Origin: an uncultured Candidatus Saccharibacteria bacterium
GTDB taxonomy: Bacteria > Patescibacteriota > Minisyncoccia > UBA6257 > WO2-44-18
Length of the DNA stretch: 64,000 nucleotides
Assembly (NCBI GenBank): GCA_964637575.1
Contig: CAZWVU010000004.1
Span: forward strand, 14,788-78,787
Direction of reading: 5' to 3'
A model generated the notes under the pieces. The model was not told the origin of the DNA. It saw only the letters and a program-made list of their open reading frames with translations, and ran no database searches. How positions within the stretch are numbered: the first letter of the stretch is position 1; every line of letters starts with the position of its first letter. A program made the translations under genes and the position numbers. Of the stretch, positions 83-61,898 are shown one piece after another.

Positions 83-2446
83 ATGCCAAAACGAGAAACA
101 GCCCTGAAATACATCATCCGGGGGATCATCTTCCTCGCGGTGTATTTCGCCGCGGGAAAATTCGGGCTGTCGCTCGCCGTCGCGACCAAGCAGGTGACGA
201 CGGTGTGGCCGCCGACGGGGATCGCCCTCGCATTCCTCCTGCTGTTCGGCGAATGGCACTGGCCGGCGGTTTTTATCGGGGCGTTTCTGGTGAATATCAC
301 CGCGCACGAGCCGGCGCTCGCGGCGCTCGGCATCGCCATCGGCAACACGCTGGAAGCGCTGCTCGGCGCCTATCTCGCGCGGAAGGTGGCCGGGTTGGAA
401 AAATCGATCCGGCGGCTGAAGGACGCGGTGGGATTCACGGCATTCGGCGTGCTCTTCGGGCCGGCGGTGAGTGCCACCTTCGGGGCACTGACGCTGGCAT
501 GGGCAGGGCTGGCGGACTGGCAGGCGCTCGGCTCAGTCTGGATTACCTGGCTGGTCGGGGACGCGATGGGCGCCCTCGTGGTGGCACCGCTGATCCTTTC
601 GTTCGCGGACGAGAAGAATCAGAATCTCTTCCGGAAAAAGCCGGTGGAAACCTTCGCGCTGTTCGGCCTGCTGGTGCTCGCCAGCCTGTTTGTGTTCACC
701 ACGCGGACGGGCGATTCGCTGATCACCGGCCAGCTGAAATTCCTCGTGTTTCCGTTTCTCCTCTGGGCGGCGCTGGCCTTCAGCCAGCTGGGGGTGTCCA
801 TCGCCCTCCTGCTGATTACCGGCATTGCGATCACCGGCACTATTTTCGGACTGGGTCCCTTTATGGGAACGGCGGCGGTGGTTGAGCAGAACCTGATCCT
901 GCTCCAGATTTTCATGTTCACGGCCGGCGTGTCCGGATTGCTGCTCGCCGCGGCGGTGGAGGAGCGTGACGCGGCGCGGGGGGAGGCGGTGGAAGGCGAA
1001 CGCCGTTACCGCCAGCTCGTGGAGCTTTCTCCGGACGCGATGTTCATTGAACGCGCCGGCCGGTTCGTGTTCGTGAACAGCGCCACGCTGAAACTGTTCG
1101 GCGCCCGGCATCAGGACGATCTGCTGGGGCAGAATGTGGCCGACTTCATCCATCCGGATTACCTCCAGCCCAAGATGGAACGGCTGCGCGCGCTGGCTGA
1201 ACGCAAAAGACCCGTGCCGCTGGTGGAGGAAAAAATTCTCCGGCTGGACGGCCTGCCGGTGGACGTGGAAACGGCCTCAACCTGGCTTATATATAAGGGA
1301 AATCCGGCGGTGCAGGTGATCATGCGGGACATCCGCGAACGGAAAGATGCGGAGCGGAGACTGCGCATTTCCATGGAGAGCGTGGAGCGGGAGCGGGCGA
1401 AAGACGAAGCGCTCCTGGAGAGTATTGCCGAAGGCGTGGTGGCGATCGATACGGTCGGCCGCGTCATTTATATCAACGATCAGGCGGAGGAACTTTTCGG
1501 TTTCACGGAGCGCGAACTGCTGGGGAAGGTGTTTAATGAAATCGTTCCCGCCGAGGATGAAAAAGGTGTCCTTATTCCGATCAGCCGGCGCGCGCTTTCG
1601 CTCGCGGTGGCGACGAAGAAGCGCTCGCCGCTCGCCGCCGATTTCATTATCCGGAAGGACCGGACGAAGGTGCCGGTTCACGCCACCGCGTCGCCAGTGA
1701 TCCTCGAGGGCCGGGTGGTGGGCGCAATCGGCACGTACCGCGATATCACCAAAGAAAAAGAAATTGAGCGGGCCAAGAGCGAGTTTGTCTCAGTCGCGTC
1801 GCACCAGCTCCGCTCGCCGCTCACCGCCTTCAAGTGGGTGATTGAACTTTTGCGCAAAGAAAAAGTGAACCGGAGCGTGCGGACGAAAATTGAGTATCTC
1901 TACAAGTCCAACGATCGCCTGATCACGCTCGTGAACGATCTTTTAAGCGTGTCCCGCATCGAGGTCGGCACGGCGATGGTGAACAAGCAGCCATCCGACG
2001 TGAAGGGGCTGATCGGAAACGTGATCGGAGTGCTCACCCCGGACGCCGAAGCCAAAAAAGTGACGGTGCGCGTCCAGGCGAAGATTGACGTGATCAAGAG
2101 CGTGATCGATCCCAACCTTTTTTCCGAAGCGTTCAAAAATATCCTGGATAACGCGATCTGGTACGGCCCGCCGTCGTCGGAAGTGAAAGTGATGATCGAC
2201 CAGCGCGGCAAGGAATATCTGATCAGCGTCCACAATGCCGGCCCGTCCATTCTGGAAAAAGACAAGCCGAAGCTGTTTACGAAATTTTACCGCGGCACGG
2301 GTGCCGCCGATCAGAAGCCGACCGGCAGCGGACTCGGGCTTTTCATTGCGAAATCAGCCATCGAATCCAACGGAGGGAAAATCTGGTTTGAATCGGCCGC
2401 CGGGCGGGGGACGACGTTTTATTTTACGGTACCGATCACCGCCTGA
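83..2446 (+). CDS. Sensor histidine kinase: N-terminal polytopic MASE1-like membrane domain, two PAS domains, HisKA, HATPase_c
   Basis: 787-aa ORF. Hydrophobic N-terminal ~290 aa. PAS-like segments. H-box SHQLRSPL. C-terminal GSGLGL ATP-lid motif. TGA stop. Confidence 0.85.
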   Translation: MPKRETALKYIIRGIIFLAVYFAAGKFGLSLAVATKQVTTVWPPTGIALAFLLLFGEWHWPAVFIGAFLVNITAHEPALAALGIAIGNTLEALLGAYLARKVAGLEKSIRRLKDAVGFTAFGVLFGPAVSATFGALTLAWAGLADWQALGSVWITWLVGDAMGALVVAPLILSFADEKNQNLFRKKPVETFALFGLLVLASLFVFTTRTGDSLITGQLKFLVFPFLLWAALAFSQLGVSIALLLITGIAITGTIFGLGPFMGTAAVVEQNLILLQIFMFTAGVSGLLLAAAVEERDAARGEAVEGERRYRQLVELSPDAMFIERAGRFVFVNSATLKLFGARHQDDLLGQNVADFIHPDYLQPKMERLRALAERKRPVPLVEEKILRLDGLPVDVETASTWLIYKGNPAVQVIMRDIRERKDAERRLRISMESVERERAKDEALLESIAEGVVAIDTVGRVIYINDQAEELFGFTERELLGKVFNEIVPAEDEKGVLIPISRRALSLAVATKKRSPLAADFIIRKDRTKVPVHATASPVILEGRVVGAIGTYRDITKEKEIERAKSEFVSVASHQLRSPLTAFKWVIELLRKEKVNRSVRTKIEYLYKSNDRLITLVNDLLSVSRIEVGTAMVNKQPSDVKGLIGNVIGVLTPDAEAKKVTVRVQAKIDVIKSVIDPNLFSEAFKNILDNAIWYGPPSSEVKVMIDQRGKEYLISVHNAGPSILEKDKPKLFTKFYRGTGAADQKPTGSGLGLFIAKSAIESNGGKIWFESAAGRGTTFYFTVPITA

Positions 2447-28570: not shown

Positions 28571-28603
28571 GATAATAAAAAATCCCCCTGTTTTCAGGGG
28601 ATT

Positions 28604-28730
28604 TGGTTGGCCCGGGAGGGATTGCCTACAACTCTCGGCTCGCCGTCGCTCGCCTCGGTCGCAGGCCGCCCCTCGTCCACGATTTTCTACTGAAAATCGG
28701 GACTGCGGGCTTCAATCCCTCCGAAACGAT
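28604..28730 (-). ncRNA. tRNA-Met-linked conserved element ending in a copy of the tRNA-Met T-arm/acceptor 3' segment
   Basis: Minus-strand read GGAGGGATTGAAGCCCGCAG...GAGGGGCGGCCTGCGA...GTTGTAGGCAATCCCTCCCGGGCCAACC(A). The 3' 21 nt equal the tRNA-Met 3' end. Duplicated terminator at 28576-28603. Confidence 0.55.
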
Positions 28731-28752
28731 AAATCCCCTGAAACAGGGGATT

Positions 28753-28829
28753 TGGTTGGCCCGGGAGGGATTGAACCTCCAACCTCGCGGATTATGAGTC
28801 CGGCGCTCTACCAGTTGAGCTACGGGCCA
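28753..28829 (-). tRNA. tRNA-Met (anticodon CAT; could also be lysidine-type Ile2), CCA encoded
   Basis: Cloverleaf: acceptor TGGCCCG/CGGGCCA, D arm GCTC/GAGC, anticodon loop CTCATAA, T arm GGAGG-TTCAATC-CCTCC. 77 nt. Confidence 0.85.
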
Positions 28830-49159: not shown

Positions 49160-49195
49160 ATTAAAATACCCGCTTGGGATATTTTATTTCTGATG

Positions 49196-49330
49196 CGGAG
49201 GCGAAGGATTCGGCTACAAGTCCGGCCGCCGCAGCGGCCGGCTCGCAGCCCGCCCCTCGCTCATTCGCCTGCTGGCGAATTTCGCTGCGGGCTTCTCACC
49301 TTCCCCGAAATCCGTAAGCCGAAAAGCAAA
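49196..49330 (-). ncRNA. tRNA-Ser-linked conserved element ending in a copy of the tRNA-Ser T-arm/acceptor 3' segment
   Basis: Minus-strand read GGAAGGTGAGAAGCCCGCAG...GAGGGGCGGGCTGCGA...CTTGTAGCCGAATCCTTCGCCTCCGCA. Homologous blocks with the tRNA-Met-linked element. Confidence 0.55.
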
Positions 49331-49362
49331 AGCCGCCGCAAGGGCGGTTTTGTTTTCTGTTG

Positions 49363-49449
49363 CGGAGGCGGAAGGATTCGAACCTTCGGACCGGTTTCCC
49401 GGTCAACAACTTAGCAGGTTGCTGCTTTAGGCCACTCAGCCACGCCTCC
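49363..49449 (-). tRNA. tRNA-Ser (anticodon GCT), long variable arm, no encoded CCA
   Basis: GGAGGCG acceptor. Anticodon loop CTGCTAA. Variable arm TGACCGGGAAACCGGTC. T arm GAAGG-TTCGAAT-CCTTC. 87 nt. Confidence 0.85.
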
Positions 49450-59060: not shown

Positions 59061-59135
59061 GGTGCCTATAGTTTAGTGGTAAAACACCGCTCTGTGGCAG
59101 CGGATTCGAGGGTTCGATTCCCTCTAGGCACCCCA
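59061..59135 (+). tRNA. tRNA-His (GTG) with encoded G-1 and CCA
   Basis: G-1 pairs with C73. Acceptor GTGCCTA/TAGGCAC. Anticodon loop CTGTGGC. T arm GAGGG-TTCGATT-CCCTC. Confidence 0.85.
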
Positions 59136-60803
59136 GACGGTATCTAATATAACCGCAGAAGGTTCGTTAGATATCATCACAGGAATCTCGGCATTACGTC
59201 GGGATTTTTGTGTTTTAGGGGCGACTAAGGCTTTTGATTTACCAGCGATCACTGGTGTGAACTCCACCGCCATGTCAGTCACGATCCGTGGTTTCTGGCA
59301 CTCTTTGTATTTCTCAGTGAAGATCAGACCTTCGGCTTGCATCAAGGCTCTTATAATCGGGCTTGGTATGACCGTCACCACTTTCTTATCCGTCACCTCA
59401 AACCGTTCCCAGTAAAGGCCTAGGAATAGTCGCTTCATTTCGTCCGGAGCTTTCATGTATGCCTCGTATGCGTTTCTCACAAAGAGCAGGATGTCTTGGA
59501 GCTCATCAATCCGCATATTAAGCTTCTTATCTTGGGCGTAGAGTTCGTCCTGTATGCTCTCGACCTGTTCTTTTATTTTCACTTTGATTCGAGTGAAGTC
59601 ATCATCTGAAATCAATCCACCGAATAATTTCTCCTCGGCAGTGTCACGCTTCTTTTCAAGTATCATCTTTTGCGTATTTAGTCCTTTCTTATCTTTATTT
59701 ATGACTTCCTTCCGACCGCTGTATATTTTCTCAATCTTGGCGACCATTCGTCCCACAAATGTCGGAGTGAATTCAATCAGTTTGAAAAGGTCAGCGATCT
59801 GCTGTTCCAAATCCCAGACTTCCACATATTTGTCCGAGCATTTGATCTGATCGCCGGAACGGTTGCAATGATAGTAAGATTTATTTTTCTTTGGGTGATG
59901 TTCGGCTGTGTATCTTTGTCCGCAGACGGCGCAGTAGGTCAGACCTCGCAGTATGAAGTTAAACTTTTGCCTACGACAGGCATAGCGGTTATGTTCGGCC
60001 ATGACCAGCTGGGTGCGTTCCCATATTTCTTTTGTGATGAGTGGTTTGTGTTTACCAACACCCACCAGTCCTCGCCAACGCATCTCCCCGTAGTAAAACT
60101 GATTCTTAAGTATCTCAATCATCTTGCTGTGAGCTAGTCGCTTACCGGCATGAGTCCTGAACCCTTTCTTATACAAAGCATCACGGACTTCGTAGACTGA
60201 ATAATCTCCAGTCACATACATGTTGAATGCTTCCTGGATAAGCGGCGCACGTTCTTCGTCTACAACAATGATCCTCTTTTTCTCATCGCTTGGATCACCG
60301 GCATTCAAGTAGCCGGAAGCCACACCTGTCGGCCACCAGCCATCTCGGAATTTCTGTTCAAGGCTCTTCAAAGTTTTTCTCGATGTGATTTGCGACTGGA
60401 GTTGGTTCACGCCAGCTATCACTAAGTCCATAAAGTTTCCTTCCGGAGAGTCAGTTATGCCGGGTTGCGATACGGAAAACAATTCAACCTCATGTTTTTT
60501 GAGGATCGCTTTGATTTGCATATGGTCGAGGGCATTTCTCGCCAGTCGGTCGGTGTCTTGAATAAATACTGCGCGGATAGCTTTATCATCTTGGACTCGA
60601 AGCAACATGTCTTGGAGCCCGGGACGATTCATATTGGTGGCGGATCGTCCTGGGTCTTCGAAGACTCCTTCGTTTGCCAGTTTGTATTTGTTGCTTTCCT
60701 CGATCGCTCGTTTACAGAGTTTGAGCTGTGTGGTGAGGGAATGGTGGCCGTCCTCGGCCTGTTCTTCAGTCGAGACTCGGCAGTAGATTAATGCATGTTC
60801 CAT
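59124..60803 (-). CDS. Large serine recombinase (resolvase N-domain, recombinase domain, zinc ribbon, coiled coil)
   Basis: LIYCRVSTEEQ catalytic Ser motif. CAVCGQRY...HCNRS zinc ribbon. 559 aa. Its last 4 codons overlap the tRNA-His 3' end. Confidence 0.85.
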   Translation of the reverse strand: MEHALIYCRVSTEEQAEDGHHSLTTQLKLCKRAIEESNKYKLANEGVFEDPGRSATNMNRPGLQDMLLRVQDDKAIRAVFIQDTDRLARNALDHMQIKAILKKHEVELFSVSQPGITDSPEGNFMDLVIAGVNQLQSQITSRKTLKSLEQKFRDGWWPTGVASGYLNAGDPSDEKKRIIVVDEERAPLIQEAFNMYVTGDYSVYEVRDALYKKGFRTHAGKRLAHSKMIEILKNQFYYGEMRWRGLVGVGKHKPLITKEIWERTQLVMAEHNRYACRRQKFNFILRGLTYCAVCGQRYTAEHHPKKNKSYYHCNRSGDQIKCSDKYVEVWDLEQQIADLFKLIEFTPTFVGRMVAKIEKIYSGRKEVINKDKKGLNTQKMILEKKRDTAEEKLFGGLISDDDFTRIKVKIKEQVESIQDELYAQDKKLNMRIDELQDILLFVRNAYEAYMKAPDEMKRLFLGLYWERFEVTDKKVVTVIPSPIIRALMQAEGLIFTEKYKECQKPRIVTDMAVEFTPVIAGKSKALVAPKTQKSRRNAEIPVMISNEPSAVILDTVWGA

Positions 60804-61100: not shown

Positions 61101-61898
61101 TTAGCCACTTTCACCGGCTATTGATAGAAGGGAGTTAAAATACGCACCTTTGTTTTTGATCGTTCCGGACGGCATTTGTTTCAATTTCTCATAGGCATTT
61201 TCTATTCTGGCCAGTCCATGAGTCTTGAGAGCTGAAAGCATAAAGTTCATATCCGGCTCCTCGAGATATCGAGCAATCTCTAAACATCTTTCTTCCTCAA
61301 ATGTTTTAGGATTGAAACTTCTTACCACACAGCGATTCGATCGATTGTTTTTATTTTCTTTTTCGTTATCGTTCTTCTGACTTCTGCCGAGTGAACTATC
61401 GGAAGTGAAAGAAAACCTTGCTACCAGCTTCTTCTTCTCGCTTTCCAACTTCTGCGAAATGTCATCGACTTCTGCCGGTGCTTCTGCTGGTGTTTGCTCT
61501 GGAGTAGTATCATCACTTCTGCCAGACTTCTGTTCAAAGTGATGTTCAATGTACTTAAATGTGCCGTCAGATAAGGGATAATTGCCGATATCCACATTGA
61601 ATGAACTTCTGCGACCTTGTTGTCTAGCAAACCATACCCACCTCTTCCGCTTTAGCTCGAGCATAATTTTATTCACCCTGTTCTTGTCATATTTTTCTTT
61701 GAAATCTTTTGAGAGTCCGGCATAACTTACATGAGCTCTTCCAGATCGGGGATTGGCAGTGAGCCAAAGCCACACCAAAATGGCATATTCCTCAAACTTC
61801 AAGTGACCGTCGATAAGGGCGGTTTTAATACTCCGTGGGAGTTTTACATAATCATTATTGTCTATTTTGAATGGCAGATTTTCCATGTTCATATTCAT
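61101..61898 (-). CDS. Hypothetical element protein (possible replication initiator)
   Basis: 265 aa. Basic/aromatic N-domain, acidic linker, C-terminal helical domain. Adjacent to the iteron-like repeats. Confidence 0.35.
   Translation of the reverse strand: MNMNMENLPFKIDNNDYVKLPRSIKTALIDGHLKFEEYAILVWLWLTANPRSGRAHVSYAGLSKDFKEKYDKNRVNKIMLELKRKRWVWFARQQGRRSSFNVDIGNYPLSDGTFKYIEHHFEQKSGRSDDTTPEQTPAEAPAEVDDISQKLESEKKKLVARFSFTSDSSLGRSQKNDNEKENKNNRSNRCVVRSFNPKTFEEERCLEIARYLEEPDMNFMLSALKTHGLARIENAYEKLKQMPSGTIKNKGAYFNSLLSIAGESG

Follow-up and report, generated by a model that had tools for sequence, protein, structure and literature searches.

A conserved, structured and gene-less element at the T-loop of tRNA and tmRNA genes, with two copies in a Candidatus Saccharibacteria contig

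Genomic islands that tyrosine integrases place in tRNA and tmRNA genes, with the T-loop as a sublocation, are compiled in the Islander database (PMC4383910), and the attB site of mycobacteriophage Ms6 is the T-loop of a tRNA-Ala gene (PMC1762012). We analysed a stretch of 64,000 nucleotides (the window) from an uncultured Candidatus Saccharibacteria bacterium (assembly GCA_964637575.1, contig CAZWVU010000004.1, positions 14,788 to 78,787 of the forward strand) and describe here a conserved, structured, non-coding and multi-copy element whose insertion site is the T-loop in many genes for tRNA and tmRNA, two of the tRNA genes being in the window. As at the islands, insertion affects the 3' part of the tRNA or tmRNA gene and leaves it regenerated, its displaced 3' fragment (the arm) forming a direct repeat whose boundary lies in the T-loop; the block of identity is also variable in length, and tandem occupancy is found in both. 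Unlike the islands, the element measures about 150-180 bp and has no integrase or other gene, and it occurs at no fewer than 20 tRNA classes and at tmRNA, whereas a family of islands has one or a few tRNA targets. Moreover, its body folds as a single strand, in a conserved and covarying way, and contains a complement of the arm (the anti-arm).

The attP(+) site of phage CTX is a folded single-strand site used by XerCD. Folded single-stranded recombination sites are also known from integrons, as attC (PMC5027507, PMC4792948). The element resembles both in its strand-specific imperfect hairpin, in pairing that is conserved beyond sequence and in a fold that would recreate a duplex site, and also in consisting of small, promoterless, arrayed units for which an enzyme would be supplied in trans. 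It differs from them in that its target is the tRNA T-loop and not attI or dif, and in that the sequence of its core is invariant. Neither R''/R' boxes (RYYYAAC / GTTRRRY) nor a dif-like Xer site was found in the element, the junction being CTTGTAGG/CGAAT (the slash marks the boundary) and the base of the last stem (P3) GCCTGCGAG / CTTGTAGGC.

MITEs (miniature transposable elements with inverted repeats) and the palindrome-associated elements derived from IS200/IS605 are small, structured, non-autonomous elements in many copies, whose ends show inverted complementarity. The element is like them in these respects. In contrast to MITEs, its repeat is 18-55 bp long with one fixed end instead of being a short fixed target-site duplication, its inverted repeat is made of arm and anti-arm, which come from the target sequence and not from the termini of the element, and no parent insertion sequence is known.

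The copies at tRNA-Met and tRNA-Ser

The initial annotation of the window had described a tRNA-Met gene followed by a terminator hairpin and an element of ~125 nt that ends in a copy of the 3' arm of this tRNA. The layout was recovered, with a block of ~100 nt and a 30-nt exact direct repeat (caatccctcccgggccaaccaaatcccctg, at 28773-28744 and 28624-28595) that starts at T-loop position C56 and extends 9 nt beyond CCA. The features of the locus, all on the minus strand as are those of the tRNA-Ser locus, are as follows.

28753..28829, minus: intact tRNA-Met (CAT) (ARAGORN; Rfam tRNA, 64.8 bits), whose 3' arm from C56 (28773) is arm copy 1
28744..28773, minus: direct repeat copy 1, from T-loop C56 to CCA plus a 9-nt trailer
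28731..28752, minus: hairpin aatcccctg-ttt-caggggatt in the apical (Pa) position, inside the arm:anti-arm helix; near-copy of the native terminator
28713..28722, minus: anti-arm (5' strand of P1), GGAGGGATTG, exact complement of arm positions 56-65
28711-28712, minus: junction AA ahead of P2
28668..28710, minus: P2, invariant GCCC-GCAG ... CGAG-GGGC around the hairpin CGATTTTC-AGTA-GAAAATCG
28625..28665, minus: P3, CCTGCGA ... GTTGTAGG; two of its pairs are conserved G.U pairs, and its apical hairpin is GC-rich
28595..28624, minus: direct repeat copy 2, the 3' arm of tRNA-Met (displaced or duplicated) with the next 9 nt
28577..28604, minus: intrinsic terminator with a full T-tract

The anti-arm pairs with the arm CAATCCCTCC across 10 bp and is not a copy of the T-stem and loop of tRNA-Met itself, and P3 terminates exactly on the repeat boundary. 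The terminator at 28577..28604 is probably the native terminator of tRNA-Met, to judge from relatives with an empty site, where the tRNA is directly followed by its terminator. The duplication of this terminator had been noted before; the two hairpins are near-copies and not exact ones, since the loops are TTT and AAAA, there is one extra G-C pair, and a full T-tract follows copy 2 only. At 28731-28752 and 28580-28604 (minus strand) the stems are the same and the loops complementary, which looks like a loop inversion that could have arisen by intrastrand template switching.

The second insert follows the tRNA-Ser gene, whose downstream arm mimic (cgaatccttcgcctccgca, 49212-49194) was also reported correctly and has a 1-nt deletion.

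49362..49449, minus: intact tRNA-Ser (GCT) (ARAGORN; Rfam)
49361-49380, minus: arm copy 1, cgaatccttccgcctccgca
49321..49347, minus: canonical terminator separating tRNA-Ser from the element
49293..49306, minus: anti-arm GGGGAAGG, which pairs with the arm (CCTTCC..CC), and junction TGAGAA
49252..49292, minus: P2, GCCC-GCAG ... GCGAG-GGGC with the hairpin ATTCGCC-AGCA-GGCGAAT
49213..49249, minus: P3, GCTGCGAG ... CTTGTAGC
49194..49212, minus: arm copy 2, cgaatccttcgcctccgca, 1-nt deletion relative to the tRNA
about 49160-49184, minus: second, different terminator after arm copy 2

The homology of the two inserts, their different perfect hairpins and their common TTGTAG block, all part of the first description, were borne out. 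Their cores of ~100 nt have 72% column identity in the alignment, the strings GAAGCCCGCAG, GAGGGGCGGSCTGCGA and CGAGGGGCGGSCTGCGA have exact matches in the 64 kb at these two sites only, and a family profile (nhmmer) matches both inserts with E about 1e-17, these being its sole two matches in the window. The element thus adjoins two of the four tRNA genes of the window, and no copy was found at tRNA-Arg or tRNA-His. Each insert folds into a three-way junction composed of P1 (5' segment and arm copy), P2 (GCCC..hairpin..GGGC) and P3 (CUGCGA..hairpin..UUGUAG), and is far more stable than shuffled sequences (z = -6.9 for Met and -5.8 for Ser). The pairing of the 5' segment with the 3' arm, likewise foreseen, covers 6-8 bp in the Ser copy, and the basal pair of P3 is G-C in Ser and C-G in Met, a compensatory change.

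A family of folded units and its distribution

Relatives were sought with exact patterns in metagenome contigs and in a genome set with one member per species; these scans returned chance matches and about 55 true relatives arranged in the same way, so that the layout seen in the window is beyond chance. The hosts belong mostly to the Patescibacteria, or candidate phyla radiation (CPR), and include Paceibacterota, Nomurabacteria, Saccharibacteria, Colwellbacteria, Sungiibacteriota and Parcubacteria; further copies lie on contigs assigned to Acidobacteriota or very similar to those, among them an unlabelled metagenome contig of 290 kb. Of the 46 copies for which 200 nt or more are available upstream, 43 stand within 260 nt downstream of a tRNA or tmRNA gene on the same strand, a proximity expected by chance at less than 1% of positions, and the element always has the orientation of the tRNA. 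These genes represent 20 anticodon classes and tmRNA (loci L005 and L229; L numbers denote the individual loci). Tandem arrays of 170-174-bp units are found in L070, L250, L224, L225 and L003.

The three exceptions are L212, L242 and L234. In L212 the copy stands behind a degenerate arm and a 1.4-kb insert, and in L242 a nested insert of 150 nt displaces the tRNA beyond the contig. L234 has a solo copy (587-690): the 586 nt that precede it contain no recognisable tRNA, and a degenerate arm copy follows downstream. In L212 (3534-4514, minus strand) the 1.4-kb segment contains an ORF (open reading frame) of 326 aa between tRNA-Leu(TAA) and the degenerate arm with the element; this ORF has weak, sub-threshold Pfam matches only, including one to a xylose-isomerase-like TIM barrel, and the layout resembles a second insert stacked on the same attachment site. 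The nested insertion of ~150 nt sits in the loop of the P0 hairpin, in L212 (3190-3335) and also in L226, L242, L252 and the second unit of L214. It has 10-bp inverted termini, GTCCCGAAAW...WTTTCGGGAC, and could represent another small module, either mobile or structured.

The whole unit looks like a miniature mobile element of 150-180 bp for which neither Rfam nor the literature searched holds a family description. With Rfam 15 at gathering thresholds the window gave tRNA matches only, and no match to the element core was obtained with both window copies (E<=10) or with a full CPR unit (E<=1), the families covered including twister, twister-sister, hammerhead, HDV-like, group I/II introns, tmRNA, Y RNA and HEARO. 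The top permissive matches were tRNA and, antisense over tRNA genes, Plastid-ycf2 (47.6 bits) and Plastid-psbl-rps4 (38.9 bits); the few others were far under the gathering thresholds and off the core. A suspected likeness between GAAGCCCG...GAGGGGCGG and twister, and another between CGAGGGGCGG and tmRNA PK1, were dropped because no Rfam match fits the core. A study of group I introns in CPR tRNA genes does not mention the element (PMC13011429).

The unit has no ORF, and an all-against-all comparison of the ORFs of 50 loci revealed no shared neighbouring gene, with only spurious ORFs over repeats and local synteny. Pattern scans of viral contigs gave no recognised true copy among the matches listed, those listed for a loose pattern being seemingly chance matches, and a filtered pass recovered none.

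Read 5' to 3' after the tRNA, the full unit consists of an apical hairpin (Pa), an acceptor complement, P0, a T-arm complement, GAA, P2, GG, P3 and arm copy 2, which begins immediately after P3. Pa has the loop GAACGAAGUGA in many CPR copies, and elsewhere the tRNA's own terminator hairpin takes its place. The acceptor complement (5-8 nt) is complementary to the acceptor 3' strand, positions 65-72, and the second complementary segment (9-10 nt) to arm positions 56-65; "anti-arm" refers to both segments together (positions 56-72), which are split by P0 (consensus GCAAGCAAAYUGMUUUGCUUGC). P2 is the invariant GCCC-GCAG...CGAG-GGGC, and P3 is CCUGCGAG...ACUUGUAGG with two invariant G.U pairs and frequently a GUCA loop. 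In L079, L046 and L034 the acceptor and T stems form a helix like the top half of a tRNA.

The fold was evaluated on 27 diverse copies. At 23 of the 33 consensus pairs both sides have changed with the pair kept; 92.8% of cells are paired, against 74% with shuffled partners and 41-52% when slid, and the covariation score is 0.486 against at most 0.123. The covarying parts are P0, P1 and upper P3, and the parts invariant in sequence are P2a, whose pairs are unchanged in 27/27 sequences, and the base of P3. Since the G.U pairs are C.A mismatches on the opposite strand, the folding strand is the tRNA-sense strand. A pairing of GCAG with the CUGC of P3 was rejected, as the variants L238 and L005 compensate within P3, and so was a role of the P3 stem as tRNA specifier, identical P3 stems being found with different tRNAs.

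The anti-arm is the Watson-Crick complement of the arm; it does not duplicate the 5' strands of the tRNA itself. In the Met copy the anti-arm GAUUG stands opposite the T-loop CAAUC, and in L070, L079 and L003 an anti-arm A stands opposite U64 or U65, where the tRNA itself has G. Its mean binding energy is -13.8 kcal/mol with the arm of its own tRNA and -8.5 with the arms of other loci (Wilcoxon p = 1.7e-5), and the own arm is the best of all arms in 13 of 28 loci and among the top two in 17 of 28. Even within a subfamily with near-identical cores, arms and anti-arms vary among Arg-TCG, Leu-TAA, Leu-GAG, Leu-TAG and Phe. Both arm copies are possible partners of the anti-arm, of which the upstream copy is the one maintained. 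This follows from two observations. Where the arm copies differ by at least 2 bases, the anti-arm fits the tRNA's arm and not the downstream copy in 8 of 9 loci; these include the old, diverged tmRNA copy L005, in which the anti-arm is still perfect though arm copy 2 has drifted and the tmRNA 5' strand GGGGAUG fits arm copy 1 and not copy 2. In addition, folding the sequence between C56 of the tRNA and the anti-arm, both included, gave in nearly all loci a long arm:anti-arm helix with P0 branching from it, even where it spans a terminator.

Boundaries, empty sites and rearrangements

The left end of the repeat is C56 at all loci (..GGTT/CGAAT.. in the tRNA and ..TTGTAGG/CGAAT.. at the end of the element). 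The right end is usually the discriminator or CCA plus 0-5 nt, which gives a repeat of 18-23 nt, and it reaches further in the Met copy and L046 (+9), in L223 (+15) and in L033 (+37, the entire terminator being duplicated); overall the repeats span 18-55 bp with the left end fixed and the right end variable. A copy made from the mature tRNA was rejected because genes without CCA have repeats without CCA, and the arm must therefore have been copied from DNA or from a precursor.

Empty sites were found in four relatives (L260, L258, L255 and L265), in which tRNA-Met is directly followed by its own terminator with neither element nor island. The surroundings are syntenic, tRNA-Met standing between the genes for a histidine phosphatase and a small Cys-rich membrane protein, and the proteins are 68-75% identical. 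For tRNA-Ser no empty site was identified, the neighbouring YdeI-family protein being too widespread and the homologous contigs examined not syntenic. No integrase island was found at the site in these relatives, and the internal blocks of the element persisted as more loci were compared; either result in the other sense had been named in the initial annotation as grounds against its proposal. Four short-read contigs of the window organism (L261-L264) that carry the identical phosphatase gene break off within P3 or directly at tRNA-Met. The element acts there as an assembly breakpoint, and this genome probably has further copies with the same P3.

Several loci bear traces of rearrangement. Copy number differs among related contigs (L241 and L070; L245 and L224). 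L224 (5700-6328) and L245 (14000-14829) have an identical flank after the last unit and different tRNAs (Leu-TAA and Leu-GAG) and upstream flanks, which indicates recombination or rearrangement between element copies; their terminal arm, CGAGTTTCTTCCGAGATA, fits neither tRNA. Gene conversion is suggested by P3 bases that are mosaic (in L226 and L252, for instance, this base has a G.G), and in the array of L250 the distal unit is the most diverged.

Chimeras are joined at 55/56-58. In L249 and L231 tRNA fragments are joined at 55/56 to a foreign arm which the anti-arm fits, the resident arm appears after the core, and an intact tRNA copy is present upstream. The order in L249 (about 1450-1800, minus strand) is a tRNA-Phe 5' fragment, a different intact tRNA-Phe, and Phe 44-55 joined to the foreign arm and the element; in L231 (1-450) a tRNA-Glu is joined to a variant arm.

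Proposed mechanism and competing explanations

With moderate confidence we propose that this is a non-autonomous, site-specific mobile element whose folded single strand is the substrate of a strand exchange at 55/56. The attachment point is the T-loop of the tRNA or tmRNA gene, between T55 and C56-A58, and the integrated element is bounded by two arm copies, which begin at C56, extend about 2-5 nt beyond the discriminator or CCA and at times take in the terminator, so that the tRNA is left intact, as it is at tRNA-gene islands. The tRNA-sense strand would fold while single-stranded, and two points make us favour DNA exposed in replication or recombination over RNA. At tRNA-Ser, L005, L239 and L033 a strong terminator stands between tRNA and anti-arm, which argues against an obligatory co-transcribed RNA, and the tRNA-sense strand would be the lagging-strand template if tRNA genes are co-directional with replication.

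In the folded strand, arm and anti-arm would rebuild a duplex copy of the target beside the invariant junction (GAA, P2, GG, P3), with the last base of P3 abutting C56 of arm copy 2, and duplex and junction together could be the substrate on which an enzyme supplied in trans exchanges strands. Slippage or recombination between the arm repeats could then produce tandem arrays, precise loss and chimeras. The cognate-specific ends might be explained by selection, given that insertions with an ill-fitting arm would destroy the tRNA and that the anti-arm would have to match the arm for the fold to form. We observe the anatomy and the family, its link to tRNA genes, covarying pairs, cognate complementarity, empty sites, arrays and chimeras; we infer that the active form is single-strand DNA, that the enzyme acts in trans and which way the arm is transferred.

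Several observations weigh against this proposal. No integrase or recombinase, HUH enzyme or reverse transcriptase is linked to the element in the loci examined, and no excised form was seen. Conserved G.U pairs are more typical of RNA than of DNA sites, as is an invariant junction, and the window copies are reduced versions, with no canonical P0 and a weak acceptor complement. All displaced arms of L250 carry a non-functional T-loop, CGTGTT, and the displaced arm of L005 misfits the 5' strand of its resident tmRNA, so that later decay or unequal crossing-over is needed to account for them. Moreover, the repeats of L033 and tRNA-Met include the locus-specific trailer or terminator, and for this a target-derived duplication is a better fit than an arm carried by the element. 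Finally, how the anti-arm comes to match a newly colonised tRNA is left without explanation by every model. Few steps may suffice, because the arms of these CPR tRNAs are similar, and we conjecture stepwise mutation or template-switch correction of quasi-palindromes; the inverted loop between the two Met hairpins is a hint that template-switch events occur.

A possible, though doubtful, alternative is guide-directed insertion. The anti-arm of an RNA or single-stranded DNA element would pair with the sense strand of the tRNA arm (56-77) and the paired target segment would be duplicated. The P2/P3 junction would set the 3' end (..GUAGG-OH) at C56, strand transfer would take place at 55/56 in a ribozyme-like manner or by an RNA-guided protein, and a second cut about 20 nt off with fill-in, or target-primed synthesis, would duplicate the paired segment, by a logic like that of group II intron or R2 insertion. 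The coincidence of the duplicated segment with the one paired to the anti-arm, the trailers and terminators in the repeats of L033, Met and L046, and the usual repeat of 19-23 nt whether or not CCA is encoded would all be accounted for, and so would the layout of scaffold and variable guide with an invariant 3' end abutting C56, the anti-arm that follows the real tRNA arm and the distal position of the most diverged array unit. Against it, no reverse transcriptase or nuclease partner and no similarity to a known ribozyme (Rfam) was found, the foreign-arm chimeras L249 and L231 need extra recombination, upstream terminators restrict transcription of the element in several loci, and retargeting still needs mutation of the guide. 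The stronger version, a programmable element, protein-free or guided by RNA or single-stranded DNA, in which an invariant junction of ~100 nt with variable anti-arms inserts at T55/C56 and duplicates the paired segment, we consider rather unlikely.

Group II introns and R2 read their target by base pairing and are co-transcribed with a host structural RNA gene. The element is similar in having internal segments whose complement lies immediately upstream of the insertion point and in residing, with no promoter of its own, in a conserved and highly expressed RNA gene. It differs in its core of about 100 nt, in the lack of a domain V and of a reverse transcriptase ORF, and in the long target duplication, and the group II intron model RF00029 matched neither of the window copies nor one full CPR unit. 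No tnpA or tnpB gene stands beside the element in the loci, and its scaffold is not followed by a free guide as in the TnpB omega-RNA, the putative guide (arm copy 2) being sequestered by the anti-arm.

That the element is instead a structured RNA linked to tRNAs, useful to the host and spread by duplication without being selfish, seems quite unlikely. It could act as a processing or decoy module, as a switch in which the anti-arm alternates between tRNA arm and mimic, or as a tRNA-like small RNA cut out by RNase P and RNase Z. tRNA-like RNAs such as the tRNA-like domain of tmRNA and the bacterial Y RNA have a coaxial helix of acceptor and T stem, with the anticodon/D region replaced by another helix, and in this the element is alike. 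It departs from them by a three-way junction in place of the T-loop, by an arm copied from the adjacent gene and by the lack of an Rfam match. The strong covariation, the invariant core, the constant orientation with the tRNA, the top-half helix of L079, L046 and L034 and the perfect anti-arm of L005 would all suit a host function. The part of the initial annotation that favoured a structured RNA with a T-arm-like closing helix is likewise upheld as far as the fold on the tRNA-sense strand is concerned. Against it, the downstream arm mimic is not the maintained partner, and terminators intervene between tRNA and element in several loci, including tRNA-Ser; close relatives without the element, its presence at just two of the four window tRNAs, tandem arrays, truncated units, chimeras that break the tRNA and copy-number polymorphism also speak against a host role.

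The other initial suggestion, attL/attR-type duplications from a tRNA-targeting integrative element, fits the anatomy; each of the two initial suggestions is right in part, and neither covers everything. That ordinary attL/attR scars remain from integrase-bearing islands or prophages deleted to about 110 bp is extremely unlikely: the regenerated tRNA gene, the displaced 3' fragment (as at tRNA-gene islands, PMC4383910), the T-loop boundary (T-loop attB sites being known, PMC1762012), the tmRNA target, the empty sites in relatives and a serine recombinase beside tRNA-His in the window all agree with it, but about 55 copies with a near-invariant, covarying core in 20 tRNA classes and different phyla, uniform array units of 170-174 bp, the lack of an integrase at any locus and the empty sites free of islands show no decayed larger island, and independent deletions would not converge to one sequence.

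If the proposal of a mobile folded strand is true, this would be the smallest site-specific element known on tRNA and tmRNA genes, gene-less and with an internal complement of its target. It would join attC, CTX phage, bridge RNAs and group II introns on a short list of systems whose target recognition relies on a folded single strand or a guide, and it might be reprogrammable. Should the guide-directed, possibly ribozyme-like, explanation be right, the element would represent a new class of mobile element, and the smallest known. The invariant junction is a candidate for a new RNA or DNA motif. On a practical side, the copies break short-read assemblies, the tRNA fragments and chimeric tRNAs can mislead annotation, and as dispersed repeats the copies appear to rearrange small CPR genomes.

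The serine recombinase mentioned above has 559 aa (59124-60803, minus strand; Pfam Resolvase, Recombinase, Zn_ribbon_recom), and its stop codon overlaps the 3' end of tRNA-His (59062-59135, plus strand). It probably marks an integrated element or prophage that extends to the end of the window; no att repeat for it was found at tRNA-His inside the window. Beyond it lie unannotated ORFs, for example 61101-61898, which has no Pfam match, and the ORF at 63408-64001 has, by eye only, the look of a Dam-type methylase.

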